A DNA stretch of 63,745 bases, the filler included, from Welwitschia mirabilis (Eukaryota), in assembly GCA_051453625.1 (NCBI GenBank). It is 5 parts of one record of this genome, joined end to end, with 100 filler letters (N's around TTAATTAATTAA, not from the genome) between each part and the next. Parts side by side here need not be neighbours in the genome. Positions count along the whole stretch, not along the records: positions 18,959 to 37,309 come from JBOZIK010000001.1; 4 more parts are not named here. One strand, given 5' to 3'. The stretch's first letter is position 1. Every line of letters begins with the position of its first letter. Positions 18,915-43,633 of the stretch are shown piece by piece. A model generated the notes under the pieces. The model saw only the letters and a list, made by a program, of their open reading frames with translations. It did no database searches and was not told the origin of the DNA. A program made the position numbers and the translations under genes.

Positions 18915-19719
18915 NNNNNNNNNNNNNNNNNNNNNNNNNNNNNNNNNNNNNNNNNNNNTTTTACCCAGAGCTCTCTGTAAAATCTGAAAACTGAAACTTT
19001 CTACTTGCTATTTTCTGCCTATAATTTATGAGACATTTTTATAAAATAAATTTTAAAAATTATTCTATCCCTATACAAATTTCTGTTTTAAAACTTTTAC
19101 CTTCCTAACATTATTATAGACCTACATGAAATATTTTATAAAATTTTAATTAATATTAAATGAGTTATGACTTTCCTAAATTACTTGACATAAAAAGAGA
19201 CTAAACTGTAAACTNNNNNNNNNNNNNNNNNNNNNNNNNNNNNNNNNNNNNNNNNNNNNNNNNNNNNNNNNNNNNNNNNNNNNNNNNNNNNNNNNNNNNN
19301 NNNNNNNNNNNNNNCACTTTTACTAATTAATTTTAGTTTCTTTTAAAACTTGAATAAGACACATGAATAAATGATTAAAATAAATATGTCAGATGCCCCT
19401 TTTTTTGTAGACATTATTTAACTATTTAATCATGAAAATAATCTTGCCTAATCATAATAAGTTTATTTACATTAAAATTCTTATAATTATTATTACAACT
19501 TAGAATAATAAATTACCCAAAACTAAGATTAAATAATTTACTAATCTTATGAATATCTATAATGTCCGATGTATAATACTTTACTGATTATAGGGTTACA
19601 TATAAATTCCCTCTAAGAAAAAAAAAAGGGTTTTCATTAGAATTGATATTAAAAATGTTTTACATAGTTTAGATACTATATTAATTAAAGCTTACAAAAT
19701 GTGGGTTATAACATAATGT

Positions 19720-20533
19720 CAAAGGTAGATCACCTCTTGTCAGCAATGTGGAAGCCAAGATACAACAATGTCAATGCACAACTTAATCTTTTAGATCCAA
19801 AATGATTTAGCTAAGTGATAATAGTTCCAAAAGCTCTTTTGGTCATCTATAGATTAGCTATTTATAATGAAAAGCTATTAGGATTTATTACATTTTAATT
19901 GTGCCTTTAACGGCTATAAATGACTAGAAAAGGCTATCTAACAGCTAGATAATGGATACATAACATTTAGAAAAATTTCTTTTTCATGCCATCCAATTGG
20001 TCCCATAAAAATCCAGTCAACCCCATGTGGTGTCATGAATTACATAGGTCACCCAAGAGAAAGATTCAGTCACCTCAGGTATTTATGTCTCTATATCTAA
20101 TTGACCCCTTCTGGGTTTGGTCGACCCTAGTCTAGTAGACCCCATCCTGGGTTTAGTGAATCCCTTGACTCTTGGTCTAGAAGTACTGTTTGTTAGTTCC
20201 TCAAATTCGGTCGACCTCATGAAAATATAGTTAACTCCTTTCCATTTAGTTCAAGGACTCTGGCTCTTCAAGTTACAGGTCCAGCCGATCCCATCAGAAT
20301 CTGATTGACCCCTCTAGAAGTAGTTCATTTTCCTTTGATAGCTTTAGGTGCGGTCGACCCCTTTAGGATTTGGTCGACCCTTCTAGAGGGTGAAAAAATA
20401 TATATATTCTTAGTGGATATTTTTATTTCATCTTTTAATCTGCAAAAACCTTAATATCTTCTGCACAAAATATACAACATTGGCTATATAAAAGATATTA
20501 GTTTGACATCAATTGGTAAGACATAATCCAACA
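19720..20533 (-). repeat. Sirevirus LTR (partial or solo), same family as 40431-41239 and 63508+
   Basis: Shares GCTATTTATAATGAA..ATAATGGATACATAAC, GGTCGACCC motifs and the terminus TTAGTTTGACAT.AATTGG..AACA with 40431-41239. Confidence 0.8.
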
Positions 20534-23339
20534 ATAATATCCTCTAAATGAAGTGAGGTAGGGTATTTATAAGCTAAATTTAGAGTTTACAATTAGGAAT
20601 TCAAAGGTCTAATAAGGTTGTTCTTTGAAATGCCCAAAGTGTATAGGGTAGTCCTTAAGTCATGGGGTTAATTTTCAGGGATTATGTTAGAAATATTTCT
20701 CATTTATCTTCTACTTGTGGAAATGATTAGAATGGATTAATTGTATCAAGAAAACTCAAAAACATAAGTATGAATTCATTATGATCATAATTACTAATAC
20801 TACTGGTTCTAGAACCAATGTTATTACCAATATTACTTTACACACCACCAACTTTTGTCATAATGCTTTAAATGATGCAAATATCCTATAAAATGATAGT
20901 ATTAAGAAATATTATTAGTAAAACTAAATTTGCATGGCCTTAATCATAATAAATACATAAAATCCTCATGATGATTAATTAAGCACACTAATAAGGCCTA
21001 GGTTCCTTGAGGTAAATATTAATTTTTTCATTTTATTATAGTCCTTAATCATTCTTTTTATAGTTCCTCAACAAAAAAGATGTATCAAATATTAGGTAAG
21101 ATAAAAAAAATTACAAATCAAATCAATAAATTCTAAAAAAGATAAAGGAATATAAAAAAAAGAGCTAATGTAATTTAAAATTATACTTAAGTAAAAGAAT
21201 AAAACATGAAATATAGGTACTTAAATTAAAATGTCATTCTTTTCAACCAAAGCTAAACTTTATCATTAAAGTTTGAAAGATGGAAAATTGAATTTAATCA
21301 CAATGAAAAATGAATGATGCATGAGCTAATGTAGTTTAGAATGAACTAGCAATAAAAATTACTAAAAATTAAAATATGTAATACATGAATTAATCAAAAA
21401 ATATGAAATATAAACTAATGCAAATAAAAGATTAAAAATCAACATGAATCTTTAATTTTAATGACTTAAATCTTTGAATCTAAAATATAAATTAAATTAA
21501 TAATTAAAAATATGACTGAAGAAGAATGAAGAATAAAAAATGAATGTGATGATTATTGGTAGGCAAACCATGTTTTCAAATTGATATTTCTTTTAAAAGA
21601 ATCTTTTATCTTTAGTAACTTTAAATATGTAATAAAAATCACATGAAATGAACTAGTATGTGGGAGTTAATCATAAATGTCATAATCTAAAGATAAATGT
21701 CAAAGAGAAAGTAAGAAGATTACTTTAAAGAAAAGACTTTAAATAAATTCATATTCTTAGTTAAAATGTAATGCAATGGATGAATGTAAAGTGCAGAGAT
21801 GAATGTAATCCTAAATGCAATTTCTAATTAGGTATACCAATTTGTTATCACCTAAATTAACCCTCATAATGTGTATCAATTGCTAATAACTATCACTTAA
21901 AGGTAATCAACCTAAGCTATAAGAAAGATCATATGAAAGAATATTAAAAAGAATAATTCAATAAATATTTCATTAATAGAATTGTTTACATCAAATTATA
22001 AAGTAAGAACTTATTAATGAAAGAGACATAGCCTAATACCAAGTGAAACCATTCTCTGTAATAGTTATAACATAAGAACTTCTCAATGAATGAGACACAA
22101 CCCAACACTAAGAAACACCCTTCTCTATAACTAGGATAAATACTTTGCTTAATTTCTCTCCAATTTATTAGAAGAATAATTGATGCGACCAAGATGAGTA
22201 AGTGGGGGATTTAAGGACGACATAGATAGTATTTGGAATCATTATTAATATTGGTGAAGATTCATAATAGAATAAAATCTATCATAACAATGATTACATA
22301 ATTGGTGGAGTTCATTTTGTATTTCTCATGTTTGTCATCTATTTGAATATCATCTAGATGACCAAGTGAATGACTATTAATCTTTTATCTTCTCATCGCT
22401 TCTTATTTCTACATGCCTTCTTGGTGATAGTTGATTTTTTATTTTTTAATATTGTCTTGGATGTCATCCAAATGGCCAAGTAGATAACTAATAGTAGTGA
22501 AATTTGTAAGTTTTGTTTCTTTGGATCCTATTAGTTGTTATGAGTATCATCTGAATTACCAAGTGGATGACTATTAGTTAATTGTCATCTAGAAAATTAG
22601 ATGGATGATAGTTGTTCTTTATTCTTTTCTACTTAGTATATCATGATTGACTTCTAAAATGTGATATAGATGCTCTAATGGCTATCTTCCCTGAGTGTCA
22701 TCTAGATGACATAATGGATGATAGTGTTTCTTTATATTCTAATCTCCTAAACATCATCCATAATTTTGCACTAAGGCCATGATATCTTAGAAAAGTTAAG
22801 AAGTGTAAACTGTATCAAAAAAGGTTTAGTATCTCTAAATTTGGAGTTTTATGATATCATCTTAATTAAGCCTCAGGTTCTTTCTATTTCACTAGAAACT
22901 TACTAAAAATACATGAAACATACCATAAACATACTCTTAACTATTACCAATTGGACTTACAACATAGCCACCACTAAGAATTATGAGTTCCTGATAAAGA
23001 AAGAAAAACAAAATAGAAGAAAGCTAAAGTGGCAAGGATAATTAATTATTGAAATGCAAAGAATGAAAGTTAGAGGTCTTACCATTTAATATAATGGTTC
23101 TTTATGAAAATTTAAAAAAAATGATGTGTTTTCTCATCCATCATCTAGACGACATAGAGGATGGTAATCTCAAAAACTAAATTTTATGATTTCTTGATCT
23201 TTTTTGCTTGAAAATTGATTAATACCTACATGAATGTCTAAAATATACAATTTCATGCAAAAATTACATTAGTTATCCACTTAAATATTTATCAAATTAA
23301 TAATATAAAACATAATTACATGAGATAAAGAAATTAATG

Positions 23340-23341
<2 letters not shown>

Positions 23342-23400
<59 letters not shown>
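23342..23400. repeat. (AC)~29 microsatellite
   Basis: Directly visible perfect dinucleotide run. Confidence 0.98.
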
Positions 23401-23403
<3 letters not shown>

Positions 23404-24454
23404 GTATGAGTATAATAAAAAAGCTAGGACTACATTAGTCACCTTGATTAGCTATTGTAAGTTCTACTCTAGCACTCAGAGCAAGCGAAGATGGAGGGTA
23501 TTCTTCCTCTAGTGGGAATTATGTACCAATGATAGTCTAAACTAAGTGTATAACCTTCTTGTCTAGACCTACAAAGCCTCTAGAAGATCTGTAGTAATAT
23601 CGTACTTGATTTATCTAACTCAACTCCCTAAAGATAACATCTGCCCTCTTATATATATCATCTGATGCTCCATGAATGTCATCCTATATCAAAGCTCTAC
23701 AAAGTTCTGATCAATCATCTTATGCATCTCCTATATTATACTTATAAGTAGAGCCTATATCTGATCAAGGGTAAATGCTCCTAGGATAACTTTAGAAACC
23801 TACTTTTGCTATTACTTAGGCTCCTTGGGAATCTAAATATCCATGTCCTATATGTAGCAGGAAGAAGTCTATAAGTGGGGAATCTACTACTCACCTACAT
23901 GCTCTAGAATGTCAAAACATCTAAAGATGGTAGTAAACAAGCATAATAAGTTAAGTGTCTAAATGTGTTAGACCTCTAACATAGCTTTTAATCTTTAGAG
24001 GTAAAGTCCATCTACTCTGTTTGATGAAAACATTGTAAGAATGATAGGATTTTAAGGCATTTATTTTAATAAACACCTTAAATATTTTTGTTTTTTAAGC
24101 CATTCAAGAAAAAAAGGCCATAATATCCTACTTAAAAAACATAAAAACAATTACAGTTTTGCCTTCTTGCCTCTTAACACTATTTTGTTTAAGCCCTCAA
24201 TCCCTCCATTGCTATTCCAGTTACATTTTTGTGACGTTGTTCTTTACCTAACTCTACCTTTTACCATCTTTTTGTTTAAGGCCTTGAGCCCTTCTTGAGT
24301 CCAAATCCTAACTTATATCTTTTCCCTTTTTATAAGTTACCCATTTATTATGAAATATCTATTCCATTTTGTAAACCTTTAAGAGATTTTTTATTGTAAC
24401 ATGGAATTCCTTTATCAAATTATATTTAGTATTCATTGTCCATGTACCATTTTC

Positions 24455-24704
24455 ATGGTATCAAAGAATCCCTTTATTGATCTTAAACGAAATTTGTTGG
24501 CTTTGTGTCTTAGAATTTTTGTAAGTAAAAATGCATTAAGATGGTCATTCATTAGAAAGATTTATGATATTATCAGTGTTCAGCTACTTTTTACTATTAT
24601 ACTCACAAGTGTTATCATTCTGATCCCTTTCATGCCTAAATTTTTTATTATGATGGGAGTAGGATTTTCTCTTTACATTTTTCAATTGATTTTTCCTTTC
24701 ATAT
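24455..24704 (+). pseudogene. LFG: Captured exon 1 of a Lifeguard/BI1-like (TMBIM, Bax inhibitor-1 family) gene
   Basis: MVSKNPFIDLKRNLLALCLRIFVSKNALRWSFIRKIYDIISVQLLFT..FSLYIFQLIFPFI is followed by a GTAAGT donor at 24705. It matches recalled plant LFG (DLE..LYPG.S..EN.LRWGFIRKVY.I...QLL.T). LCLRIF differs from LYPGIS only by transitions. Confidence 0.85.
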
Positions 24705-27554
24705 GTAAGTCTTAAAGAAATCTTTGGTTGTGATTTGAAGTCATTTTTTTTAAATTCTTTTTATTATTGTTTCATACTTATAGCTACTTTATTTTGAATA
24801 AGAAGCNNNNNNNNNNNNNNNNNNNNNNNNNNNNNNNNNNNNNNNNNNNNNNNNNNNNNNNNNNNNNNNNNNNNNNNNNNNNNNNNNNNNNNNNNNNNNN
24901 NNNNNNNNNNNNNNNNNNNNNNNNNNNNNNNNNNNNNNNNNNNNNNNNNNNNNNNNNNNNNNNNNNNNNNNNNNNNNNNNNTTAAAAATCAAGTTCAAAA
25001 TTGGATGTAAGAATTAAGATAGTCCAGATGTCATTTTGGAGTGGTTGATTTCATTTACAAGTGCAAATACAAACCTAGAATAGATAATTTTAGCATTACC
25101 AATATTCAATAGACATAGAACCATGTATTAAGAAGTTGTAACTAATTACCTCTACACACAGGTAAATATAATAGATAACAAAATGTTATAAAATTACTCC
25201 TGTGCATAATGGCACTAGAAGGGGCAATAACATAGAAATCTGCTAAGTCATGATCTTCGGTCACATTTGTAGGGATGCTAGGCCTCCATTACTAGAAGAG
25301 CAACAATGAATTTCTTAGTAGAGTTTACGCACTCAACTTGGTTTAAAGCTTCATTTGTCACATGAAACAAATTCCTTTTATGTTTTATTTAGGAAGGTTG
25401 TAACTTTTGTTTCCAATTATCCTATATACCTTAGTATTTATAAGAAGTAAATAGGTATGTATGCCTTTGTACAAGTAAGCTGTGAAAAAGTAATCTATGC
25501 AAGTAAGTTGTTACTTTGTAAGGTAAAATTTGTATATTTTAAATCTAAAAGATAAAACATTACTAAATCTCAGGAGCATCAAGTATGATAAAGGAAATTT
25601 AAGGCATAAGTCAAAAGAAAGAATTAAAAAAATAAAGATATCAAGAATTTTGGGTGTTAAGTTACAGTGATGTTAAAAAGAAAAGCTAGCCTAATAAAAC
25701 TTGACATTAAGATAATACAATTTTGATGTAAGATCCTTGAATAGGATCAAATATTGAAGTAAGAAATGTACATATACTATATAAAGATGATGAATGAATA
25801 TTTCACATACATCTAGAAGGAGTATAGCAAAAAATTTAGTATTTGAATAAAAATTAGTCAACATAGCCAATCTTGATACAAGAAGTTCTCTAGGTGCAAT
25901 CTCATCTTTGGTAATAATGGAAGAAAAATGAGAGTGTAATAGTAAAGATACTTCTACATTTTCAATGTCTATGATTATGGCTATCAAATTTTATTATGTC
26001 TTTCTAAATTACATTTTTTAACACTATAGAGTTAACATAGTTAACTTAGGATACACATGAAATATAATGAATTTTTTATTTTTATTTGGCTAAATTTCTT
26101 TCTTTTCCTGTGTTTTAAACATAAATAATATAATATCCATAAGCTTCCAATTTCTATTTTTACATTTTAATAAAACTAAAACTAAATTTATTATAAGTTC
26201 ATAAGACCCTAAGGATCTATTAGACAAAAAAAATGTAAATGGCATGAGCCTGACAGATGACATCTATAAAGTATCCTAGAGTTTAGGTAAAACTTGGAAT
26301 AATTCCACCAAATGCTAATTTTCATGTCTTTCTGTCATTCATTCTTAGCTCTAGAATGTTTTTGCTTTTTCAAGAGTGTTGCTGATAATTGGTTTGCTTT
26401 CAAATGCTAGCATGAAGTAGATTCAGATAACATGAAAATATCTTTCATCATAGATGGAAAGTAGGTTTTAATAATAATATAGATTATGGTACTCTCACCT
26501 AGGTTACTAACGTTAGTGGTAAGTGGAAAATGCTTGTGTTTGATCAAAAGAATCATTAACATCTTGGGTGTGAACATTAATATGATGCTAGATAAGATAA
26601 TACTTATTCAAAATCTAGGAAAAATTAAGTTAACTAGCATGTCACTAAGATTTCAACTCCTCCTATGCAAGACTATCTTACAAGAAGCATGAGGCAAGAC
26701 AACCATAAAGGAAGTTCATAGAAAGTCATTGGAGCCTTAAACGAAAGAAAAATTATTAGTACAAATGATAACATTAGGTCAGACAAAATTTCTAAATAAA
26801 GTGCTATGAAGAATCTTCCATTGAATGCTAAAAAGACAACTTAATTTGCTAAGACTAGTCAAAAGCAAATTGTATAGAGCACAGAACAATTAAGTTACTA
26901 TGGATAAAGAGTGAGGGCTTTGATTTAAATAACTATTTTATTGAATTAATAGTATTAATGGTTTGCATAAGAATGCTAGTTTTAAAGCTTTTGACATTTT
27001 CTTTGATTGATTTACAATCTTATTTGTTGCTTATTTCATGTTACTTTGCCTCTCAGTGCTATCCTATTTTTGTAATTTCAAGCCTTGCACTTTTCAATAG
27101 GAACTAGTTTTGTATTTGTCATAAGGAAATAGAATCATAGTAAAGAACAATTGGAATTTGTAATACAGTAACAACATATGCAATAGTATGTCTTAGTATA
27201 ATGGTAATCGAACATTTGCATGATGAATTATTATTTGTTATTACAAGTCATGTGGAAGGGCATGTCATTATCTAAGACTTTTTTATACCAAAGATGCATG
27301 TGTTTTAATTATTAGAAGAGGGTTAGAACTACATCTAAATCAAAAAGTAGACTTAAAAACATTTGCATATTTTCTAGAAAGATGGTTTAATATGATAATA
27401 TGATATGATCTTTTACTTAATTCATTTTTCTCTCATTTGATTTTTTTGACCAGATCTTAGTTTTAATTGATGATGTTTAATCATTCAAAAGATTTTTTAG
27501 AACTTATTTTTCAATGTCCATTCTAAAATTTTAACATGCATTTTTGAATTTTAG

Positions 27555-28051
27555 TGCATTCCTCTTGGCTTCTTGGAAGGCACCAAGTTTATAAGAGAAT
27601 CAGATTGCTACATTAGGGATTTTTGGAGTAAGGTGAAAATCATTCTTTTCGATCTCTTTATGACTCTCATATGATTATGTTTTGTTTCTCTACATGAATA
27701 AAAATTGATTATGGTCATAATGCTACTTCTATATTCTTGATTTATGTATTTTAATTTTATCACCTTCCTGTGGTCTTGGGGTAAATTGTTTTCTTTGTTA
27801 TTAGGGAGTGCCATTACTTTGTTCAGATTTACAGCCCTTGTATGAAAATGAAGAGAAGGTACAACTTGTTAGAGATCAATATCCTTAATAACTAGGTTGA
27901 TTTTTTATTTTTTTAATTATCATTGACTAAATTTGCAAGCTCATCTGATGTCAATACAAATGGTTTCATTTATTTTATAGGCAGTTATATTAGAGGAAAT
28001 AATTCTTCAAATTGAATCTTTTCTTAAGAATAATGGAACTTTTCCTGGAAA
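27555..28051 (+). pseudogene. NAA15: Three captured internal exons, with introns, of NatA auxiliary subunit NAA15
   Basis: AG/GT-bounded exons 27555-27632 (CIPLGFLEGTKFIRESDCYIRDFWSK), 27805-27858 (GVPLLCSDLQPLYENEEK) and 27981-28051 (AVILEEIILQIESFLKNNGTFPG) splice in frame. They match recalled plant NAA15 (RIPLDFL....F.EA...YI.PLLTKGVPSLFSDLS.LYDHP.K.DILEQL......I.TTG.FPG). Confidence 0.85.
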
Positions 28052-31000
28052 GTAAGCTTTTGAGTGAGTTTTTAATTTTCCACACCTAAGAGTATTTTAT
28101 ATGTGTATTCATACATCATATTATTATTTGATCTAGATGTTTGAGTATTTGCTATTGTAAATAGTTGATCCCTAAGGGGTTTATGCTTCATTAGTTGTGA
28201 TACTGCATTTGACTTTACACACTATTTTATGTATGTTAAGTGGAAAAGACAACTATAAAAAAACTTANNNNNNNNNNNNNNNNNNNNNNNNNNNNNNNNN
28301 NNNNNNNNNNNNNNNNNNNNNNNNNNNNNNNNNNNNNNNNNNNNNNNNNNNNNNNNNNNNNNNNNNNNNNNNNNNNNNNNNNNNNNNNNNNNNNNNNNNN
28401 NNNNNNNNNNNNNNNNNNNNNNNNNNNNNNNNNNNNNNNNNNNNNNNNNNNNNNNNNNNNNNNNNNNNNNNNNNNNNNNNNNNNNNNNNNNNNNNNNNNN
28501 NNNNNNNNNNNNNNNNNNNNNNNNNNNNNNNNNNNNNNNNNNNNNNNNNNNNNNNNNNNNNNNNNNNNNNNNNNNNNNNNNNNNNNNNNNNNNNNNNNNN
28601 NNNNNNNNNNNNNNNNNNNNNNNNNNNNNNNNNNNNNNNNNNNNNNNNNNNNNNNNNNNNNNNNNNNNNNNNNNNNNNNNNNNNNNNNNNNNNNNNNNNN
28701 NNNNNNNNNNNNNNNNNNNNNNNNNNNNNNNNNNNNNNNNNNNNNNNNNNNNNNNNNNNNNNNNNNNNNNNNNNNNNNNNNNNNNNNNNNNNNNNNNNNN
28801 NNNNNNNNNNNNNNNNNNNNNNNNNNNNNNNNNNNNNNNNNNNNNNNNNNNNNNNNNNNNNNNNNNNNNNNNNNNNNNNNNNNNNNNNNNNNNNNNNNNN
28901 NNNNNNNNNNNNNNNNNNNNNNNNNNNNNNNNNNNNNNNNNNNNNNNNNNNNNNNNNNNNNNNNNNNNNNNNNNNNNNNNNNNNNNNNNNNNNNNNNNNN
29001 NNNNNNNNNNNNNNNNNNNNNNNNNNNNNNNNNNNNNNNNNNNNNNNNNNNNNNNNNNNNNNNNNNNNNNNNNNNCATGTAGTTATTATCATTTCGCTAT
29101 CATCAAATCCTTTTATTGTTTTTATTCATCTTATTGTCTTTTCTATCTTAGTGTCTATGAATAGTAGAACGATGGAAAAGAAGGATTCCATCCCTCTTAT
29201 GTGATCTTACTTTTGGATGATGTGTTTTCCTTCTTCCTTCTAATTTCTTAATTATGTTTTTTAAATTATATTTTTATTCTTTTTGTGGCCAATCTAAATA
29301 CCTTCCTCCCTTTTCTTTTCCAATGATCCCTTTTTTATACAAACCAGAAGATAAGATCCAAAAGACCTAGATCCTGTATCTTAAATAGAATGAATATTAA
29401 GCTTAATTTATGTCATTATGTTATATATCCTACTAGTGTTAGTGGTTAATTTATGTTATTATTAGTGAAGTGGTTGTTTTATTTTCACTGCAATATATTA
29501 GTCATAACAAACACTATCCTATTGGTTAATTTCATAGCCAATATATTAGTTAATTTTAATTTTAACTTTGAAGTGGTTATTTTTCTATTTTAATTAAAGT
29601 GTATATCTATAATATCGAAATATAAATTCAGTAATTAAAAATATTTAAATCTTCAACTTAGAAGTTGATAATTTAGGTTTTTTTTGGCATTGAATATATT
29701 AATCTCAGTGTTATTTAAAGGCACCATATTAGAAAGTCATTTTTCTGGATCACCCTTCATTTTTCCACATCCTTTCCTCTAGTCATCTCTTTTTTATGTT
29801 ATGTTTCTTATACTCTAAATCATCCCTATTCTTCCTTCTTTCTTTGTCATATGAACATATTGTATCATAGAAAGGTATCAACAAACTCAACTTGGAATAG
29901 TAGTAGAAAAATCTTTAGAGATATTTCTAATGCATTTACACATAACAATGGAGGAACTTCTAGTGTTCTATGTCCAAATACGGAAAGATCTCTCATTCTC
30001 CCAATCAACACCAATTATGCTTGTGGGCGTAGAACTAATACTTCTTTGCTCATCTTCTACTTGAACTCTAGAATAAAGAGAATTTGCAATTATAACACTA
30101 TTAGATTAAGAATACACATATATAGAGCTTATGACCTATTAAACTATTCTAATGTTTTATGTTATATGCCCATAGATTTATTATCTTTTTAACTAAAATT
30201 TAAAGAAGTGAAATTTAAGACACCTAGTCTCACATATGATCTTGAGTTATGGATCTTAAATTTCTGCCAAGCATGGATGCTATACAAAATCTATAATAGT
30301 AATCAAAGTGACACATACCAACTCTAGAAGGTATGATAATACAAATTCAATGCATGCAATGATGGGTGCATTAAAGAACTGACTAGCATCAATGTTGTCG
30401 AAGCTGGTGTGCTCAAATTTATTGTTGCTCTGGTTTTTCAATTAATCACCTTTGTAACAAGAAATTTTAAAAGCACTTGAAAAATGTTATGTTTAGAAAC
30501 AAGAAATGTTATGTTCTAGATGCCTTAAAACATAATCCTAAGTCATGAATGTATATCAAATCATAAGAGTTTTATTTTCTTAAACATCATTTTAGCTGAT
30601 TTGAATCATAATACTAAAACTTATTATTCCGTTATAGAGGTTCTTAAAAGATTTGGTTCTAGATTATTTTTATTGTTTTAAGTTATATTTTTACTTGATT
30701 TCATTCATTGATGAAATGATGCTTGAATGGAAAAGGTCGAACAATTCTAGTTAATGTCTTTATTACTTGCATGGTGAATTATATCACTATTTATATAAAA
30801 TATACAATCTAAAGAATCTCTTTTTTGGTTCTTTATGTAAGCATATAGCATTGCTTGTGGTATCCATTATTTGCTAATATTGTAACATATGTGTTCTCTA
30901 GATTGTTTTTCATCTGGTTCAACATGGCTATGATTGTAGCCTCAATTTTTTCTTCATTGTCTTTACAATGACTCTTAAATTTTTATTTTTTGTTATTGCA

Positions 31001-31824
31001 TTACATCCTAAGGTAACATAAATCTTCAACTAGTTCAATATATTAATTTGTCCCTTTTAACATGTTTAACATATTGTTTTTATTTTATTTATCAAGACAT
31101 AAATACCTTAAATTATGTATGTTTTTTAGAAATCTACAACTATCTAAAGAGTCAATTTTCCTACCTTCATAGGTATAGAGTCTATAGGCTAACTTATTTA
31201 GTTGTAATTAAATATTGAACTTTCTACAAAGGTTTCTTTAAATAACATTGTCTTGGGATAAAGAAACAACATTTTAATGATGTGGATGAAAGCGTTCAAG
31301 GACCTCAGCATATCATCTATGAATAGATATCTATCGTTGTAGACCACTGTTATAATTTTATAAAAAATGGTCTCATTTTATCTTCCTTGTTGGAGCTATC
31401 TAATACCCAAAACATAATAAAACTCCACACTTTCACATAATCTAATAGATCAATCTAATCTATTTAGTTTTCTATTTAAGAAATATTTAAAAAACCCCTT
31501 TTAGAAATAATTTATTTAAATTTAGAGGTTATCTCAGTTGAATTATTTTTTGATTCTTATAATATGGCAGTTTGATGGAATTTAAGAATGTTATGTATAT
31601 AGTGACATTCGTTTTACCCATTTTTTTCCACATGTTTTTGTGTAAGATGATTACTCAAATCTTTCATTATTGGATTTAATTAATAAATTGTTTGATACTA
31701 TTTATTTTTATACTACTATATGAATAGGTAAATAAAAACCTCTTACTAGCTTCATTCATATCAGTGCATTATGCATACCTTTGCCATAGTGGAATGTCAA
31801 GTTAGCCAAGAGACTATGCGTTTA

Positions 31825-32831
31825 ATGGGCTTCATAAGCATAGAAAAGCTATCTCCACTGGAATATTAATTCTTAGGATGCAAGTAATAGTTTTATCAGT
31901 GGATTATTCTACTATTCATGCTAGAACATCCACTGCATTATTTATGCCACCTTGATCCCCTCATAAACGTAAATTTCTCTTTTTTAAATTTATAATAAAG
32001 AAAAGAGTGAAGGAATAACTATTTGCAGACCTTGTGTTAATATAAAGTACACACTTTTAGTTATTTAAGGATGTAGAAAAACTTATGAAAGGTGGAATGC
32101 TACAATGTGCAGTCTTCAAGTCTTTAGCATTTAGCTTGGGACCCAGAGAAGTGTAGAATAAGGTGTATTATAGCATTGACTTTCCAAAAGGAAACATTTC
32201 TTTGAAAGCCTTTCATGCTAAGGTTTTAGATAATAAGGACAACTCTATTCCCTTGAATAAGGTTTATTTACCTCATTGGTTAATAGAGGGATTTTACCAA
32301 AAAAAGCCTTGAAGAGAGAAGCAAGAGAAGGCAGAGGGTAAGAGGTTATCAAGTAGCTCAACAATTATTCTATCAAGAAATGATGGAATATGTTCTAATA
32401 CCCTTCGATAATATTTTGGTCTTAGATCTGAAACCCAATACACAATAACCTTCATTCCTGATCCTTATGACATAGTTATTAGTGGTCCCAAAATGATTCC
32501 ACCTGATTATGAAGAACTATAAATTCTTAACATTCATACCATTAACACAAGAGGGGTCGCACACTTGCAAGCTTGCACAGAATGCAGATGTGATCTCTAC
32601 AACATAACTAATGTTAAACCAGACTACTTTGGAGGCTTATTTTATTGCATTGATAGGACCTAGTGTCAGTTGAGAGAAGGATTTTAGGCTGAGAAAAATA
32701 CATATTATCTAAAATACATAGTAAGTTAGGTGAACTGAATTAAAGCTATCATCCCTATGAGGATATACATTCTTATATATACTACAAATGCGTCCTCTTA
32801 AAAAGATAATAATACCTTCACTGGCTGTAAT
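31825..32831 (+). pseudogene. Captured 5' part of a stress up-regulated Nod19 (SURNod19) family gene with premature stops
   Basis: Exon 32029-32831 reads ..AVFKSLAFSLGPREV*NKVYYSIDFPKGNISLKAFHAKVLDNKDNSIPLNKVYLPHWLIEGFY..RNDGICSNTLR*YFGLRSETQYTITFIPDPY..NIHTINTRGV..CTECRCDLYNIT..PDYFGGLFYCIDRT*CQLREGF..YLKYIVS*VN*, matching SURNod19 motifs (DFPRGH, YLHHW, FGLGSETR, PDPY, CTECRCDLYN). A possible signal-peptide exon (31825-31968) joins in phase via a 60-nt GT-AG intron; that exon is less certain. Confidence 0.9.
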
Positions 32832-35299
32832 GTAGTTCATTTTAACACTTCATGCCTGCATCTCATCATAAATCAAGGTTTTCAATCATTTGTGCTTATG
32901 CAATTTCTATGCATGCTTGCAATTTTCTTCTTTAACCCTCATTTACTTATGGCATTAAGTTAAAAATTTATGTACAACTTATACGAGGAAAAAGAATTAC
33001 ATATTTTTTTTAGTGGAATCCCTATTTTTAACTCACCTCTTCTAAAATGTTAGTGCTAAATCACTATTATAGAACCTCCTTGATTAGATTTTATGTTAAT
33101 CAAAGTCCCCTTTTACTGAAATTTATGAGTCTTTATGTCCACTTTTAGCAGTAATTGAAATAACATAGAAAAATATTCTTTCTGGTATTTTGTATTTTTT
33201 CCCCCTGTAAGCTACACCTTTTGAGGCATTTATTTGATAAAATGTCATAAAAGGATTTTAAAGCATTTAAATATGAAAATTCCTTGAAACCCCTCTAAAC
33301 TCATTTGGAGCATTTTATCAGATAAATGCCTTAAAAGATATTTTAAAGCATTTTATTACACAAATGCCTCAAAAGCCCTATTAAGGCATTTATATATAAA
33401 ATGCCTCAAAAGGGCTTTTAAGATAATTTTTCAAAAAATGCCTCAAAAGATGTTTAAGACATTTTTATTTAAATGCCTTAGAAACACCTTAAGATCTTAT
33501 AGGTTTTTAAGGCAAGGCTTTTTAAGATGTTTTGTGAAGAAAAGCCTTAAAAGCTTTTTAGGCATCTTTTTAGTGCCTTTTAAGGTATTTGAGAAATGCC
33601 TTAAAAGCCTATAATCCTCATAGTAAATGCTACCATTATGTGTAAATGTGCTATCATATAATGACTGACATAAAAAGAAGGATTAATGTTATCAATTAGG
33701 CCTTAGTGCAAAACTCTGTAAGCTAGAGAAATATGTGTGATTAATACTTCTCTCTTATCTCTTGCCACATCTAGTAAAATATCTAACATTACACTATAAG
33801 TGTATCAATCCATCTCACCACCTACTGAATTTATATAAATGCTATCCAATCCACTTATTCTTATCATCATACCTATGTGTCCTAGTAGAATGGATACCTC
33901 ATAACCATGAAGTATGGCTATGTTCATGTCTACCAAGTGATCATCTATGTATGATAGAATTCCTATATGCATGAAGTCATAGAACTATTATATCTTTGAA
34001 GTAAAATACATCTGCGTGCATCCAAGATTAATCTTAACTATAATTTTCGAAGTCTATAATTGATCTTGGGATTAAATCATCTCATAAAATCATCAAGTTT
34101 CCTCCTTACCCTAATAGAAGATGTCTGGATGGACTATGATCTAGCAAAATAAGAAGGAGGATGAACTAGCTTAGCTTGCTAGAGCTATGAAAGATTTAAA
34201 AACGGTTCGAGAAGATGATTTTACCTCTACGTATCTAGATTGAGCTCTGGTATGTGGCCTACTGAAAATATTCATAACATATATTATCAAGAAAGTTAAA
34301 ATTCCAAATTCATTATGCAATATGTTTTTAGACATTTTTAGAGTCTCCCTTAAAATTTAACATAAAGTCACAAATACTAATTCCTATCCCCCCACCCGCT
34401 CCCTCTCATATATAGTTCATTTTAAATTATGAAAAATTTGAGAGAAATGTGTAAATTTTGTGAAGTTTTATAATAATGATGATTATAAAAATGTGAAAAA
34501 AATTAAAGAGTGTAAATAAAAAATATAATCAAGTATAATTATAGATCTCATAATGATGATTGTTCTAACTATAAACATTACTATCTTTGTTTGAATGATG
34601 TGAAAGAAATCTGGTTTTAAAAATGAAAGCCTAATTCTACCTCCTGAAACATACAAATTCACATATTTCATAAAACATACAGTGAAATTCAAATCTATTT
34701 AGACCAAAATTATGGGGATAAAAATTTGAGTATTCTACATGAAGTGGAATTAAAAACACCTAAGAAACAAGAGAAATAAGTAAAAATTTTAAAAATTTAA
34801 AAACACATCTTAGTTTCTCAAAAAATTTTAAATATTACATTTAGAGGATAGATTTGATGAATGGAAGTTGTTCAGATACTAGAGGCAGAAAAAGCATAAT
34901 TCTCATTACTTGAGAGCAGAGGAGATTAGTTAGAGAATGAGGGAAAATGGATGAAATAGGGTTTGAAACCATGGTTTTTATAGTCATCATCGATTACATC
35001 CTTCAAGAAATAGTCTCAGAAAAACTAATAGAGAAGATGAATGTCATATATTGTGTTGTATAAATAACATTAGAGATGACAATATTTTTAAGAGATGGTT
35101 ATTGTTTGCTTATCATCTAGATGACATAGTGGACAACAAGGCTTTTTAAGAATTTATGATGGATATTAAGTGGAGGGTAAGCTTTAAAAAGTTATGAATG
35201 AAAATAAGTAAAAAAATATTTTACATTAATCTTGAATGATGAAGTTTATGAATGTGATTAGAAGACTTTGAAAATGTTAAGGCTAAGATAGTACTTCAT

Positions 35300-37130
35300 T
35301 TAGAAAAAGTGTGACATACAAGGATGTAGGTTTTTTTGAATGAAATAAAGAATAAGTTTGAATACACACATCTTAATGAGACAAGAATGAATAGGAAGCC
35401 TTGTCTAGCCTAATATTTGGATGACTAAAAGAATGACATCTTTAGTTTAGAATTTTAGATTAATTTGAAAGTTTTAGATGGAATAAATTCTATGGTGACA
35501 TGATGATATGGCTAAGACATTTGCAATAGGAACAATGAAGGATTTGATCATTGTGTGTCAGGACTTAATAATTTCCAACACAGAAGACTAGAAAATGATA
35601 AAGTTCTTGCCATTGTTTATGAAAAAAAGAAGTGAATGATTTTAAGATAACTAATTTATAACTAATAAAATTAAAAACTAAAAATAAAACACATGGAACA
35701 GGAATAAGATTAACTAGTTTGCCCTAAATTTTTAACATAATAAGATCCCTTGGAGAAAATGATAACATCACTTAATGTAAAGATGTATGATTTATTGTGA
35801 AAATATCATAGTCTGTTATTCAGTAAGGCAATAAAAGGACTAATATCCAAATATTATTTAAAAAGTATCAATTTATGTTTGAACTATAATTGAATCCATC
35901 TTCAGCTTTTAGTAACCATAGTACTTTAGTTACAACATCATCTAATGATCAATATACTAAAAAGTCCTTAAGGATTTTTTGCATTAGGATAATTGGAATT
36001 AAGTGGGATATTAACAAACACCATTCTTTATAATGAGAGGAGTGAAAAAACTACTAAGAGAGTGATGATTCATAAGCAAAACTAGATGGTGACAAACTGA
36101 CCTTGTGATAGAGTTTTCACAGCTATCATATCATACTGCCAAAGGCACCTCTAGAGAAAATTTGCCCTAGTGCACTTATGGTAGAACATCATTGTATATT
36201 TTAAAGAAGGATTAACTTTTTATTTTGTTTCCTCTTTAATTATTGTTTTATGCATTTTGGATTTCATTTTAATAGCATTGATTGATCATTAGAGTTAAAT
36301 AATAAAATACATGATTGCCAATAAGCATCTGATTAACATAATTGATTCTAAAATAAATTAACCAAGGAGATTGGTTAGATATATAAATATTTGAAATTGG
36401 ATTCATCTAATATTTTTTAGTATAATACCCTAGGTAAGAGATTACTTAGACATGATATGATATGTAAAATTTAAATATGAATCAAGTTAAAGATGATTGA
36501 GTAGCATTATAACTTAAACCAAGAAATGAAAATAAGAGAAGATTTAGAAAATGAAAAAGGGAAGATCCTCCTATTTTTCTTTAAGAGGATCTCATAAGTT
36601 AATTACTTATACCACATTTAAGACATAAGAATAACTATTAGGTAAGGTAAATTTTAAGCCTTTATCCATTGACTTTTTAATCAAGTTTTAATTGCAAATC
36701 AAAAAATCTCAATAGAGCCATTAGAATGAACATTTTTTACAAGGTAAGGATCTAATCATTTAGAGATCAACTTGTTATGTAAAAGATCCACTTACATAAT
36801 ATATAATAAAATCAACTAACTAGGTTCAAAGGATTTGTAGAGGAGCTTTTTATCATGGTGAAACTTTTCCTAGGCTTTTTGGATAAGTTATCTATAAATA
36901 GCATGATTATATTTCTCATTAAGATGTTGAAGTTGGACTATTCTATGCTAAAGATTACAATCAAAATCTATGAAATTAAGTTGATAAATGAATTTATAAG
37001 AATTATAACATACATCAATGAAAAGAACACAAGTTTTACCATACACAAGTTCATAAGGTGAAAAATCAAGTGAATTATGCCAAGTAGTATGGTAAGCCTA
37101 AAGAAGGTTACTAAATTTTATGAACCAAGA
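35300..37130 (+). mobile_element. Very degraded Ty1/copia pol remnant
   Basis: Scattered motifs: FKGFV..AFYHGETF (~36825-36870, cf. AKGF.Q.EG.DY.ETF), a KSLYGLKQ-like stretch (~37082-37105), and protease/integrase-like pieces upstream. Heavily frameshifted. Confidence 0.4.
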
Positions 37131-37409
37131 TTTCTTATTTTTGAAAATTCATTTTTAAATAATTTTATTGATTTTCTTATTTGTATTTTTAGCTTAGCCA
37201 ATTTTTTGAGTGATAATCCTTAAATATCCTATGTTCACTTTCTACTGAAAGGAGGAGTTTTCTAGTAATCTTTTTTATATATTGAGTTTTTTGATCACTT
37301 ATCAAAATTNNNNNNNNNNNNNNNNNNNNNNNNNNNNNNNNNNNNNNNNNNNNTTAATTAATTAANNNNNNNNNNNNNNNNNNNNNNNNNNNNNNNNNNN
37401 NNNNNNNNN

Positions 37410-40400
37410 TTCATATGACTGATGTGAGAGTCAATTTGTTTCAAATATGAAAGAGTCTGATTTAGAGATGTTTCTTTTGGGGTTTCAAAAGGGGATTTCT
37501 TCGAAGGAGAAAAGATATGCATGCGAGAAAAAGTCACATGTCCAATGGGTGATAGGGGCTAAAGTGTCTTCAAAGAAGAATGCAGATTAACACAGAAATG
37601 ATGACAGATTTCAGTGATAAGCACAGAGTAGGGTAGAGCCCTAGTTCTTTGGTACTCTAACTGTGAAGCCATATTTTTCAATATTATGGCAGGAGCATCA
37701 ATAGAATGCTCAGTTCATACCAAATACATCAAATAAGCCCTATAGCTAGAGGCCTGATTAGATGGCCAGCTAAAGGAAGAAAATTATAAGTAAAGATCAA
37801 GTAAATAAAGCAATATTTTGGAGTTAACAGAGAAATAGAAATGGTGTGCTTCCAAGAATACATTTTACTGAAAATCTCTCTGGTGACTGCTGGCTTGTCT
37901 TTCATGGTATCTCTTAGAGGCCATGGAAGATCAGTCAACTCAGAAATGAGGTCAGTTATCAATGCTATCCTTCTACCTAAAACTAAGGTTTCTAAAGTCC
38001 TGGCATCATGATTAAAAGAAGCATTGCAATAAAACATTCTAGTAAGAAAAGCATATGCAAGACCTGAAACATCTAAGAAATGATTCAAATCTTGATCTCG
38101 TAAGAGTTGAATAACATATCTTAGCTTCTTAAGCTCAGATGAGGCTACAGACCACTCCTAATACACAACTTTCTTTTCAAACTTCTCATAGAACTTTTCC
38201 ATGGCTTCTTCAGACATTCCATTGAAGAAGTAAGCAGGTTCCCTTGAAGCACCTTCCTTTAGGCCTCTCTTGGAAGAGCTGGCTATCATTCTAAGACTTT
38301 TGAAGAAAAGAGACACTAAGAAAATCATTGGATCTGGCTGTAAAGCTCTCTTAATCTTGAAGAAACTCACTAGATCTAAAGGCTTAGAGGTACTAGATTA
38401 AGATGAAAACAGGTTAGGGTTCTAGTTCTTTATAGATTGAGGAAAATAGGGCAGATTTTACAAAGAAATTGGGTCCATCAACTATACTTCTTCACTGTAA
38501 TTCGTCAGGTCCGGTCGACCACTCGAACATCTAATTGACCCATCAAGATGCAGGTTTACAGTACTAGAATAAGCCTGAGTAACTGATCTTTCAGGCTGGT
38601 TGACCGATCACATCTGGTCAACCGAATCATAGATCTAGTTAACCACCCTGCAATCAGCTAAGGGACAGTGTACCAAACTCCAGATTACTTCCATCAAAGA
38701 TAAATTGATTACTAGAATTAGAGTTTACATCATATTTGATAGAAAAATATTTAATTTTATCATAATCTTTCCTAATATGTTGATTTTCATGAATTAATTG
38801 ATCAAGAGTTTTAACATCTAATTTATAAGCATTATCAACAAGTTTTACATTGAAAATAATAGCATACGTTTTTTCATTCTTAACTATACATTTAGATTTA
38901 TAAAAGATTATTCTATTCCCTTTGTCACAAAGTTTACTAACACTTAGTAATTTNNNNNNNNNNNNNNNNNNNNNNNNNNNNNNNNNNNNNNNNNNNNNNN
39001 NNNNNNNNTTGATGCTTCCTATACCTTCTATTTTTGCTATTTGGTTGTTTCCAAAAATGACTTCTCCTCCATTTATGCTCTTCAACCTCTAAAATCTTGA
39101 TTTATTTCCTATTATATGCATTAAATAACTACTATCTAGATATCAACTTTTTAATTGAGATTCTCTATAATTTATCTATCTTACAAAGCTTTGGAGATTA
39201 TTAGCTTTAACGCACTTAGTCTTATTTGACTTAGGTGGTATATTCTTCTTAGGAATAAATTTGAATGGTAAAGCATTTACATGTTCAAAAGTAAACATCA
39301 TATATCTAAATTTACAAAATAGTTTAGAATGACCAAGTCTACCATAAAAATTGTATAAGATATTGGATACATATTTACTTGTTTGGTTTACCTATTTTCA
39401 TGAAATTTGTGCTTCAAAACCAATATTTGATTTGTCTCCATTTTGCTTTCATATTTCAAGCATCTATTCCAGTTTAGATGAACTACTAGAAAACTTATTT
39501 ACAAAAAATGATAGATCATTTACTTGGGTAATTAACCTGAAGTTATCGGCTTTAAGTACTTTGCACTTCTCTTCCACTTCCTTCTTTTCTTTTATAATGG
39601 TCTTTACCATTTTGTTCAACTTATTGATTCTTTTGGTAAGCTTTTCACATTCTTTATACAACTCTTGATAGGTTTCTTTTAACTCATCTTCCTCTTCATC
39701 AATCATATCTAAGTCATCTGATATTAAACTACTAGGTACATTCTTGACAGATGATACTAGGACCATGAAAGATAATCCCTTTTCTCTATCTGACCCATGA
39801 TCTGAGTAGTTCTCTTTATCTTTATCATCTTCATTATCCCAAGTTGCCATCAATGAGGTGTTTTTAGGCTTTCTACTTTCTTTTCTAGTATTGGATCATT
39901 CGTTGGTCATATGTCTAAATCATTTACATAAATAGCACTGGATTTCCTTTCCCTTGTCTTATTCTCTTCTTTTTTTTGGATTGCTTTTCCTTGGATTCCT
40001 GCTTAGTTCTCCTTCCTTTTTCCTATAGAAAAATATTTTGAAACGTCTGTCTAGAAGAGCCACTTCATTATCGTCAAGTTCTTTATTCGATCTGTCAAAT
40101 CTATAATCCTCCTGCACATATTCCAAAGCAATACCTTTTCTTCTATCTTTAGTAAATTTAAGTTTATAGGTTTGAAGATTACCTTGAAGTTTTTCCAACA
40201 CAGTGCACTGATGTTTTTGCTTTCTTTGATGGCTGTTACCTNNNNNNNNNNNNNNNNNNNNNNNNNNNNNNNNNNNNNNNNNNNNTTAATTAATTAANNN
40301 NNNNNNNNNNNNNNNNNNNNNNNNNNNNNNNNNNNNNNNNNCCTTTAATAATGGACTTTTGTAGGCTAAGTCTCAACCTTTGAAGACCAATAGAAGTGAT

Positions 40401-41239
40401 GCAATAAAGCCTTGGTAGCTCTGATATTATTTATTTAGTATCAGTACAATGAATGAAGCTCTTCTTCAAATGAATACAATGACGACATCCTTAGATATGA
40501 TTCTGAGTGAAGTTCTTTTGCAAAGAATAGATCTTCTTAATCAAATATAAATCAATACAAAGATGTTCTAATAAAATATTCCACTTGATCTTTCAGATTC
40601 ACAATGAATATACTGGTTTAGAAAAGTGCCTAAAAGATCTCTAGGTCATCTCGTGCATAGCTATTTATAATGAAGGGTTACTAGGGTTTATTACAATTGA
40701 ATTGCAGCTCCAACAGCTATAAATAGCTAGAAAATGACTAGGTAACAACTACATAATGGATACATAACGTTTATAAGATTTAATTTTCTGTACCATCCGG
40801 TCGACCCCACAAAAATCCGGTTGACCCCATGAGAACTCAGTCGACCCCATCCTGGGTCCGCTTGACACCTTGTCTCTTACTTTAGAACTATGAACTTTCA
40901 GCTTCTCAAATCCAGTCAACCTCAAGAATATTCAGTCGATCCCTTTCCATTTGGTTTAGGGATACTGGTTCTTAGGATCATAGGTGCGATCGACCCATTC
41001 ATAATCTAGTCGACCCCTCTAGGTTTAGTACATTTCTTTGCGTCTGCTTTAGATGCGATCAACCCCTTTACGATTCGGTCAATCCCCACTAGAGCTAAAC
41101 ATAACTGAGTAGTTTCTTTTATGTATTTTGATCTAAATCTTTCACCTGCAAAACTCAATCTCATCTGCACACAATATGTAACACTTTGTACTACACCAGA
41201 GAAATTAGTTTGACATTAATTGGCAAATATAATCTAACA
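37410..41239 (-). mobile_element. Internally deleted Sirevirus: 5' LTR, PBS, gag, protease, then directly an ENV-like ORF
   Basis: LTR 40431-41239. Decayed Met PBS at 40418-40429 (minus strand TAATATCAGAGC). Gag (GNLQTYK, IQCYLCK*FRH knuckle, ATWD). Protease GEVIFGNNQIAKIEGIG..LLSVSKLCDKG (38654-39085). ENV-like YAFLTRMFYCNA..YNFLPLAGH (37729-38088). An assembly linker lies at 40242-40341. Confidence 0.8.
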
Positions 41240-42225
41240 TAATTTTCTAAAGTCTCTTATTGAATTTATTAAGAGATTTCAAACTTTCCATTTAGAGAGT
41301 CTCAAAGTTCCTCTTGGAAAAAAGAATATTTACAATTTGAATGCAATCTAAACCCTTAATTTTAAGAGTTTTCTAAATTCATTTTCATACTAATAAGTTG
41401 ATGATATTAGGCAGAATATCCTCATATACCTTCTCCAAGAGTTCATGATGCTATAAATTTGTTATTCCTATTGTTTAATATCATTTTCTATGTAATAACA
41501 TCTTGATAAATGTTGGAGGATCCTTTTAATTTACAAACATATTCTAAATTATCTCAAGAAAATCTTGATTTTTGAACACTCTTAGCATGTGTTCTAGTAA
41601 ACAAACAAAATTTCTAATAGGGAAGAGTCCTAAAATATTCAATCTGATTCTCATGAATTACTTGTCATTACTTTATATCATCAAGAACTTCTAAACACTA
41701 GCTTTGGTACCACTTGTTATAAATGATATAGCTCTAATACCACTTGTTATTATAATTTATATGTTGTACTACTAAAATACACATAGTATAATGTTCTTGA
41801 AGAACAATTAAAAAATAAAAAGAATTATAAAAAGATAAAGATGTACAAGAGGTTATACACTTTATGTAATTATATTTTATCTCTAAACTAGATGAATGCA
41901 TGTCTATCCCTAAAGGTTTTATATAAGATTATCATAGGAATAAAATCCAAATAACATTAATGCTAAAAATAGAAAATCTACTAGAATAACTTTAATAGAG
42001 TTGGACTTAAGTTAGCACATAACTTTGTTTTTAATGAATACTAAACTCAGACATAACATAACATGACTCTATAAATATATTTATCTCTTAAATAAGAAAC
42101 TCATAACTAATAAGTAACTAATACATGATAATAAACTATAGATATATGACTCATGTCTAAATATATAACTCTAAGAAGTACTAGTAAACTATAATTGCTT
42201 CGAGTGGTGAACTAGTTCTATAACA
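41240..42225 (-). mobile_element. Ty1/copia 5' end (LTR, PBS, start of gag) interrupted by the Sirevirus
   Basis: LTR 41745-42225 with TGTTAT..ATAACA inverted ends. Met PBS-like GCTCTAATACCA at 41731-41742. UBN2-type gag KRNFETL*MESLKS on the minus strand at ~41275-41315. Confidence 0.65.
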
Positions 42226-42620: not shown

Positions 42621-43633
42621 ATACATAATAATATTAACATATTTAATCTAAAATGATTTATTACCATGATTCTAGCATGCTCTACTAAGGTTAGATCGCA
42701 TCCCTCTATCACTGCATTTTGTTGGGCCATTTTAAGATTGGTATTAATTCGTATAAGACAATGTTACTTGTAAAAAATTATAAATGACATGTGAGGTGTG
42801 TTCACCTCCATTATCTAGGAGGAGCTTCTTAAATTTTAATCCTATCTAGTTTTCTACTTGAAAACCAAATTATTTGAAAAAATCAAGTGGTATATCTTTT
42901 AACTTAATACAACAAGCATAAATTCAATGGTTAAAATCATCAATGAATATGATAAAATATTGTGAATCAATAATAGAGCAAGGATTTATAGGTCTAACAA
43001 CATTAGAAAGGATGGGTTTCAATTTACTTTTGCCTTCTAAGATGTTTATTTCTTTGGAAATTATCTATACATGACTTTCTTATTTTATAATTCTTATAGT
43101 AATCAACTGATAAAAATAGACAAAGGAATAAGAGTTTTAGATTGAAGTACTTTAGTAATGTTTATCTAATATTCCCAAAACTTATATACCAAATTTGGAA
43201 TTTTTTTGTAATAGTAGTAACCTCTAGTTATGTTATACCAATAACAGCATGTAGAATATACACAAAATCTTATCTAGTTTCTTTTTGAATAGTTGTAATG
43301 ACCTTTCTGATCTTTCATGTATGATTAAAAAATGCACGCTTACATTATAGCTTATCAAAGTATCTAATATATAGTATATTCTTAGCGATTTATGATTGTT
43401 ATTAGTTATTAATCTTATTGTTTCAATTAAATAGTGACTTGAATTTTATTATACATAACACGAACTACTTCAGAAAATCATGCTTCAAAGGAAATAAAGC
43501 ATTTAGCATTTGAAAAAGTATAAAAATAAGTATATTCATCTATTTTATTTGAGCTACTAGGTTATTGTAGATTCTTCCCAATTGCATATTTTTTCATTTT
43601 AGCTCTTAAAAGATAATGATCGTTTTTCAAATA

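Follow-up and report, generated by a model that had tools for sequence, protein, structure and literature searches.

Positions 24031-33625 of the stretch of DNA analysed here, 63,745 nucleotides of Welwitschia mirabilis (NCBI GenBank assembly GCA_051453625.1) hereafter called the window, probably represent one old, immobile and silent non-autonomous CACTA element of the En/Spm type and of the Pack-CACTA kind, a reading to which we give a probability of about 0.6. Inside this 9.6-kb element, genomic DNA would have been copied piecemeal from at least four unrelated host genes (LFG/Bax1-I, NAA15, Serinc and SURNod19), with every piece in one orientation. The window consists of five parts of one record of this genome joined end to end, with 100 filler letters between each part and the next (positions 18,959 to 37,309 come from JBOZIK010000001.1); it is A+T-rich (~28% G+C) and is draft sequence with 29 runs of N. 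The original prediction for this region, a Pack-CACTA candidate with pieces of at least three unrelated host genes, holds with regard to the CACTA termini, their family and the transposase-free mosaic between them, whereas the target-site duplication is imperfect (2/3) and the two ends form only a probable pair.

Both ends face outward, and 24031-24062 on the left is identical at 25 of 32 positions to the reverse-complemented 33594-33625 on the right, which bears out the decayed CACTA-like inverted termini that had been claimed for both ends. Over the outermost 19 positions, 12 are identical (chance p ~0.002, with the random match rate taken as 0.29 here and in the following comparisons). An intact terminus of the family, CACTACAAGAAAAATAG, is present in the window on the minus strand (6451-6467), together with a near-intact copy, one mismatch away from it, at 5614-5630, and a TTTTAAGGCATTT-type motif follows both of them at equal distance. 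The left 17-mer of the candidate matches CACTACAAGAAAAATAG at 12 of 17 positions (chance p ~5e-4) and the right 17-mer at 11 of 17 (chance p ~2e-3). Both ends, at 24031 and 33625, are in register with the intact terminus, with equal spacing to the first subterminal motif, and they share three states, at positions 6, 12 and 18, that are unlike both intact copies. Their first five bases today are CATTG on the left and TACTA on the right, not CACTA. In addition, 24037-24085 and 5576-5624, which are inverted relative to each other, share 86% identity.

The search for other termini was carried out with an nhmmer profile built from the terminal 70 nt of four in-window termini. This profile returned four full termini in the 63.7-kb window, at 5630 and 6467 on the minus strand, 24031 on the plus strand and 33624 on the minus strand, which are the profile's own source sequences; the left terminus, as one of these sources, aligns over profile positions 1-69 with an E value of 8e-16. 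No other match with E <0.6 reaches profile positions 1-10 anywhere in the window, and there are zero matches inside 24100-33200. Since only these four full termini occur in the window, 24031 and 33625 form the sole compatible outward-facing left/right pair.

Public DNA was available as one alignment of contigs from two closely related organisms, which we call X1 and X2, and contig depth was expressed per bin as summed word depth, where one short high-copy word can inflate a bin. The left terminal bins (23782-24172) reach 3620 and 1341 and the right ones (33166-33556) 403 and 322, with flanks at ~4-7, and many contigs match 24050-24082 alone, so the family motif must be very abundant. Other elements with similar termini do exist, given the in-window copies and the terminal bins hundreds of times deeper than the flanks in two organisms, and it is supported that both termini belong to a real, very abundant CACTA family. 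A first pattern scan of metagenomes for members of this family found nothing, and the two bacterial contigs returned by a second one (L001 and L002) were discarded as chance palindromes.

The subterminal motif of this family, AAATGCCTTAAAA, occurs in 34 copies in the window with at most two mismatches, against 9.0 expected, and none of 100 shuffles reached 34. Sixteen copies lie within 33219-33606 at the right end (nine on the plus and seven on the minus strand) and four in the region of the one-ended copy (5414-5611), whereas the left end has only two, at 24050 and 24093. Subterminal arrays had been described for the element; this description applies to the right end and not to the left one. 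Neither AAATGCCTTAAAA nor the terminal strings of this family were found in the searchable literature.

The interior was examined through its 138 stop-to-stop frames of at least 28 aa overlapping 24000-33700, which were searched against the 24,736 models of Pfam, pieces with stops being translated with X at the in-frame stops. Four unrelated host families were recognised, all of them on the plus strand, as had been proposed for the gene fragments, and each piece represents only part of its Pfam profile. The strongest of these matches is SURNod19: read as one frame, 32061-33218 matches this family in a single stretch with an E value of 2.2e-71 (241 bits, profile positions 3-253 of 377), so that the piece spans two thirds of the domain and is longer than first described, and the other two frames of 32061-33218 give no Pfam match. 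As a separate observation, the stops of this piece come without a frameshift, and deamination of methylated DNA would be in keeping with such substitution-only decay.

The SURNod19 piece lies just 140 nt away from that of Serinc, a fourth gene which was absent from the original prediction and to which two of the further AG/GT-bounded exons noted there belong. The stretch 30902-31018 matches Pfam Serinc with an E value of 9.7e-4 (profile positions 203-237 of 434), the second exon, with X at its TAG, with 7.5e-7 (positions 252-313), and a wider segment, 31701-32099 with X at stops, with 2.5e-9 (positions 244-318). An intron of ~740 nt separates the two Serinc exons.

The remaining two genes are those already named in the original prediction, and for them the profile matches are weaker. 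The frame 24383-24715 matches Bax1-I with an E value of 0.0015 (18.8 bits, profile positions 2-53 of 207), below the curated cut-off, while the start codon and donor of the predicted LFG/BI1-like first exon can be read directly from the DNA; the sequence of this exon is single copy in the public contigs. As for the three NAA15 exons, splice bounds are present in all of them, and exon b matches NatA_aux_su as the sole family listed (E 0.023, profile positions 137-160 of 515). Exons a and c are too short to score, and we take them to be NAA15 on the strength of exon b and of their resemblance to the Arabidopsis NAA15. Weak as they are, the Bax1-I and NatA_aux_su matches were accepted, since among 24,736 models the ones matched are precisely those of the families named beforehand.

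Between the exons of NAA15, and likewise between those of Serinc, GT/AG-bounded introns have survived, which indicates copying at the DNA level for these two genes; the DNA-level capture originally proposed is thus supported for NAA15 and Serinc but not for SURNod19. None of the 138 frames matches a transposase family, in agreement with the earlier statement that no transposase is recognisable. No continuation of the fragments as complete genes outside 24031-33625 was seen in the ~4-kb flanks: the 67 plus-strand frames of at least 25 aa in 20000-24030 and 33626-38000 have no match to the four families. The same is true of 108 frames of at least 55 aa elsewhere in the window, from a total of 126, the other 18 being inside the region and covered by the interior scans. 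Six-frame translations of interior blocks, with X at stops, returned no Pfam match at E <=0.01, a scan that also missed the known Serinc and Bax1-I frames and is too insensitive to be used as evidence. The longest open frame, of 157 aa (29719-30189), was set aside as a chance frame, given its low recognition in the ESM Atlas, where only bacterial hypothetical clusters below 0.9 were returned. Rfam and tRNA scans of 22000-36000 revealed no RNA genes.

Other gene-capturing transposons have ends of a different kind. Helitrons finish in a GC-rich hairpin followed by CTRR at the 3' end and insert before a T, and Pack-MULEs are flanked by a 9-bp duplication and have terminal inverted repeats of ~100 bp upwards. 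A crude scan of both strands of 23000-35000 for Helitron 3' ends (CTRRT with a perfect stem of 6 or more, four or more of it G/C, no further than 15 nt away) found none, and the longest inverted pair inside 24100-33200 measures 32 nt at 81% identity, the longer pairs being confined to the right subterminal array. Helitron or MULE ends, which would have refuted the original prediction had they explained the cargo better, were found by neither scan. The coordinates of the features are collected in the following table.

Table. Features of the candidate element and of a related family copy, in window coordinates.
Feature	Position	Strand	Remarks
One-ended family copy, nearly intact terminus	5383-5630	-	final 54 nt recur at 6414-6467 beyond a gap
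Candidate target-site duplication, left copy AAA	24028-24030		read directly
Left terminus, decayed 17-nt CACTA repeat	24031-24047, within 24031-24110	+	followed by one perfect and one degenerate subterminal motif
LFG/Bax-inhibitor-like first exon	24455-24704	+	83 open codons from ATG at 24455 up to a GTAAGT donor at 24705
Assembly gap 1, 175 N	24807-24981		join confirmed by X2 contig
NAA15-like exon a	27555-27632	+	26 codons, AG/GT bounded; no database match alone
NAA15-like exon b	27805-27858	+	18 codons, AG/GT bounded; Pfam NatA_aux_su
NAA15-like exon c	27981-28051	+	AG acceptor, GTAAGC donor at 28052; no database match alone
Assembly gap 2, 808 N	28268-29075		unbridged among the contigs listed
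Serinc exon a	30876-31012	+	GTAACA donor at 31013; frameshifting 4-nt deletion vs expressed paralogue
Serinc exon b	31758-31955	+	in-frame TAG at 31803-31805
SURNod19 pseudogene piece	32100-32834	+	intronless, in a single frame interrupted by 9 stops, without frameshift
Right subterminal array	33203-33608		motif present 16 times, on both strands; a 37-bp unit occurs four times in tandem
Right CACTA inverted repeat, 17 nt, decayed	33609-33625	-	nhmmer profile positions 2-68, E 1.6e-13 (among the profile's four sources)
Candidate target-site duplication, right copy AAT	33626-33628		read directly

The contigs of X1 and X2 also allow the continuity of the region to be judged. The left junction (23489-24073) is crossed by contigs of both organisms and the right one (33467-34700) by one X2 contig. 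The two gaps of the element, for which a check had been advised, fared differently: gap 1 is bridged at the size given in the assembly, since X2 record 10 (1490 nt) matches 24056-24806 and 24982-25544 with exactly 175 letters between them, whereas no contig among those listed bridges gap 2. X2 differs from the window at a few positions per thousand, in flanks and interior alike; at one of them, 24035 G>A, X2 has the base that is canonical for the repeat. As X1 and X2 both contain the insertion, the element predates their split, and it is drifting. A microsatellite, (AC)29, occupies 23342-23400, 630 bp to the left of the element, and the contigs seem to be cut there.

Copy number is uneven along the interior. 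Long contigs of low depth extend over the LFG part and over the Serinc/SURNod19 part, both of which are near single copy, and 25545-29565, which includes the NAA15 exons, is covered by short contigs only, with bin depths up to 111; this segment is either moderately repeated sequence or studded with repeated words, the bins being coarse. The interior may, because of this unevenness, be composite or nested, and there is a very small chance that the raised depth of the NAA15 block reflects a NAA15-carrying lineage of this CACTA family that multiplied in the genome. Joints such as 24072-33322 occur in both organisms (side 23) and look like short members of the family whose left-type end passes directly into repeats of the right type, a hint only, as the sides are short.

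Expression was considered in two RNA-seq runs, about a quarter of each run being used, over 11.7 kb of the region. They yielded 31 and 13 reads, every one of which matches only in part. Of these, 20 and 7 reads fall on 30877-30922, within the Serinc piece, always with 30900 A>G and 30906 T>C and with sequence unlike the flanks on both sides. Translation by eye shows these reads passing, in their continuation, from the upstream frame to that of the Serinc match, from which it follows that the window copy has a 4-nt deletion with respect to an expressed paralogue or parent. This expressed, diverged Serinc paralogue is the only hint of a parent gene. No read of either run lies on the LFG, NAA15 or SURNod19 pieces, and the locus is silent in the two RNA samples.

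The original prediction had gone further and suggested that the cargo could have produced a chimeric spliced transcript. The co-oriented cassette does comprise an intact ATG-bearing LFG exon with a consensus donor, followed by NAA15 and Serinc exons with intact splice sites. However, besides the silence of the LFG, NAA15 and SURNod19 pieces, a hypothetical splice of LFG exon 1 to NAA15 meets a stop at codon 104, only 20 codons past the joint, which speaks against this suggestion. There is hardly any chance, in our estimation, that in some tissue the co-oriented exons could yield chimeric RNAs, or 24-nt siRNAs acting in trans on the four parent genes.

Several observations weigh against the reading of 24031-33625 as one Pack-CACTA element. 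Gap 2, which links both halves, is bridged by none of the contigs listed, and the summed depths at 26128-26518, 27301-28082 (the NAA15 exons), 29256-29646 and 32775-33165 are as high as 38-111. A one-ended family copy lies only 18 kb from the candidate, and the family sequence kept at its two ends is unequal, ~80 nt with two motif copies on the left vs ~420 nt with 16 copies on the right. The flanks (...GATGAAAA before 24031 and AATGCTACC... after 33625) are identical at two of three positions when 3 bp are compared (AAA/AAT), in 72% A+T DNA, and at one of five when 5 bp are compared (GAAAA/AATGC). The empty-site joint 24030-33626 is not among the 15 of 57 contig joints listed. The SURNod19 piece is intronless over 245 codons, which does not bear out DNA-level capture for this gene, and no parent gene was located by the protein searches for donors. 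These comprised a homologous-protein search with the LFG frame, searches with a 51-aa and an 83-aa SURNod19 frame (the latter with X at its stop), a search of 1.84 billion representatives with a 39-aa NAA15 frame, PDB sequence searches with all three NAA15 frames and an ESM Atlas search with a NAA15 frame; none of them found a match, a negative of slight weight given the short queries and libraries seemingly poor in plant proteins.

With regard to the target site, published Pack-CACTAs show 3-bp duplications (PMC6379663) and the rice/maize set 5-nt duplications (PMC8903248). Decay could account for one change in the duplication of the candidate, and A-rich flanks make a match uninformative. 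The window itself holds no copy of the element flanks in which an empty site could be read.

It is rather unlikely that two independent CACTA relics, a truncated left end at 24031-24110 and a right end or short derivative at ~33203-33625, bracket a mosaic made otherwise, be it by a Pack element of greater age, by a Helitron that went unrecognised or as filler DNA from repair; in a variant of this explanation, following the Arabidopsis model, two neighbouring insertions would have formed a hybrid still at its original place. Solo ends do occur here, as shown by the copy at 5383-5630, for which a second end could not be recognised, and any DNA might by chance come to lie between two such ends, to which the imperfect target-site duplication and the strongly unequal ends can be added. 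Moreover, 33150-33260, when reverse-complemented, is similar to the subterminal portion of a terminus (z 5.6), CCCTGTAAG at 33203-33211 is terminus-like by eye, and both terminal-deletion derivatives and hybrids with different duplications are described in PMC6379663. However, the terminal profile stops short of the 17-nt repeat at 33203 (positions 19-43, E 0.13), the flanks of the putative 33203-33625 element (TCC/AAT) are identical at none of three positions, and 24100-24460 is without a right-type terminus (z 0.8). The gene fragments end at the termini on both sides, and no other transposon signature was found inside. Complete short elements were considered in their own right at both ends: one at 24031-~24300 was rejected (z 0.8), and one at 33203-33625 is not supported by the terminal profile.

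A scaffold mis-join at gap 2, by which 24031-28267 and 29076-33625 would come from different loci, each being a one-ended gene-carrying CACTA piece, appears improbable. It would agree with the lack of a bridging contig among those listed and with the imperfect handling of gaps to which 29 gaps, several with duplicated edges, testify; against it, gap 1 of the same element is bridged at exactly the given size, the orientation and type of both ends fit one element, and co-oriented gene fragments lie on both sides of gap 2. Very improbable is a fractionated duplicate segment, in which four once-neighbouring genes were worn by deletions and the CACTA ends arrived later as unrelated insertions. All four pieces do share one orientation, and parental linkage remains conceivable as the parent loci are unmapped, but just three internal exons within 500 bp for a gene as large as NAA15, and a mere 140 nt between Serinc and SURNod19, are typical of capture and not of gradual loss, and the pieces are bounded by the termini.

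According to the one-element reading preferred here, the pieces would have been captured from elsewhere, through gap repair or through joint mobilisation of neighbouring elements as proposed for the Arabidopsis Pack-CACTAs, and the two ends would have moved as one unit. The element would then have decayed as silenced DNA, and the nine SURNod19 stops without a frameshift fit the transition-driven decay of methylated DNA that this would entail.

The En/Spm element of maize, the type element of the CACTA group, has a terminal repeat that begins CACTACAAGAAAA, and its subterminal regions, which are unequal, are packed with copies of a short motif that face both ways. The candidate resembles it in the type of terminal repeat and in its unequal subterminal regions, of which the right one is packed with motif copies, and differs from it in the motif itself, AAATGCCTTAAAA, for which the searchable literature gave no counterpart, and in having no transposase genes. 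A CACTA family of morning glory is also said to capture host gene fragments, and is likened to our element by description only. The string CACTACAAGAAAA alone occurs in two CACTA papers, on dahlia and radish.

Closer parallels are found among gene-carrying CACTA elements. Tgm-Express1 of soybean carries five unrelated host gene fragments, which are spliced into chimeric transcripts (PMC1947982), and it shares with the element in W. mirabilis the CACTA ends, the lack of a transposase and several unrelated gene pieces with exon/intron structure. Tgm-Express1 is 5.7 kb long, is inserted into an intron of a gene that is expressed, and gives rise to spliced transcripts (PMC1947982), whereas the element described here is 9.6 kb long, with decayed ends, in repeat-rich DNA and with no locus-specific RNA reads in the two runs. 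PMC8903248 gives CACTACAA as the terminal core of Pack-CACTAs, and the intact in-window copy, which starts CACTACAAG, is like this core of the Arabidopsis/packFinder Pack-TYPE set. Arabidopsis Pack-CACTA1a and 2a are, like our candidate, non-autonomous, with genic DNA from several loci and terminal-deletion derivatives nearby, and mobility has been observed for Arabidopsis Pack-CACTAs (PMC6379663). Those of maize carry the most distinct loci (PMC8903248, PMC6379663), and Pack-CACTAs with several fragments are also known from maize and rice (PMC8903248). Members of the Pack-TYPE set have intact duplications (3 bp, or 5 nt in rice and maize) and some have been seen moving (PMC6379663, PMC8903248), whereas here the duplication is imperfect and mobility is not likely. 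The element had been put forward as the best candidate for an undescribed system, which the published cases do not support (PMC1947982, PMC6379663, PMC8903248): since multi-gene capture and chimeric splicing have already been described for CACTA elements, no new question is opened by it.

Other features of the window are recorded here as observations in their own right. Direct repeats at 19781-20548 and 40583-41251 (70-74% identity, 20.8 kb apart) enclose the candidate element and may be the ends of a very old larger repeat; frame scans showed no retroelement domains between them. On the minus strand, 4 kb beyond the right end of the element, 37732-38157 weakly matches the putative plant transposon protein Transposase_32 (E 9e-4, below the cut-off). 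A pair of 1.1-kb direct repeats (43632-44745 and 53520-54635) shows 83.5% identity at a spacing of 9.9 kb, with Retrotransposon gag (45741-45908) and RNase H (49254-49454) matches on the plus strand between them, and 43632-54635 is probably an old LTR retrotransposon. Two frames within 1959-2363 on the plus strand match Aph-1, a gamma-secretase subunit (E 1e-7 and 1.5e-12, profile positions 43-168 of 231), probably as part of a real multi-exon host gene. Sequence is doubled across runs of N at 5577-5814/6414-6651 (97%), 48338-48379/48480-48521 (100%), 50390-50426/50527-50563 (100%) and 9636-9944/10045-10386 (87%), which looks like an assembly artefact or collapsed haplotypes. A tandem duplication of ~840 bp (14280-15119 and 15238-16066, 74% identity) also lies across a gap of 100 N.

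The present role of the element is most likely nothing beyond that of repeat-associated DNA. If the pairing of its ends holds, it would be one more CACTA element that collected several host gene pieces and an addition to the surveys of Pack-TYPE elements, and it would serve as an aid to annotation, in that gene calls ought not to be made on its pieces of LFG, NAA15, Serinc and SURNod19.

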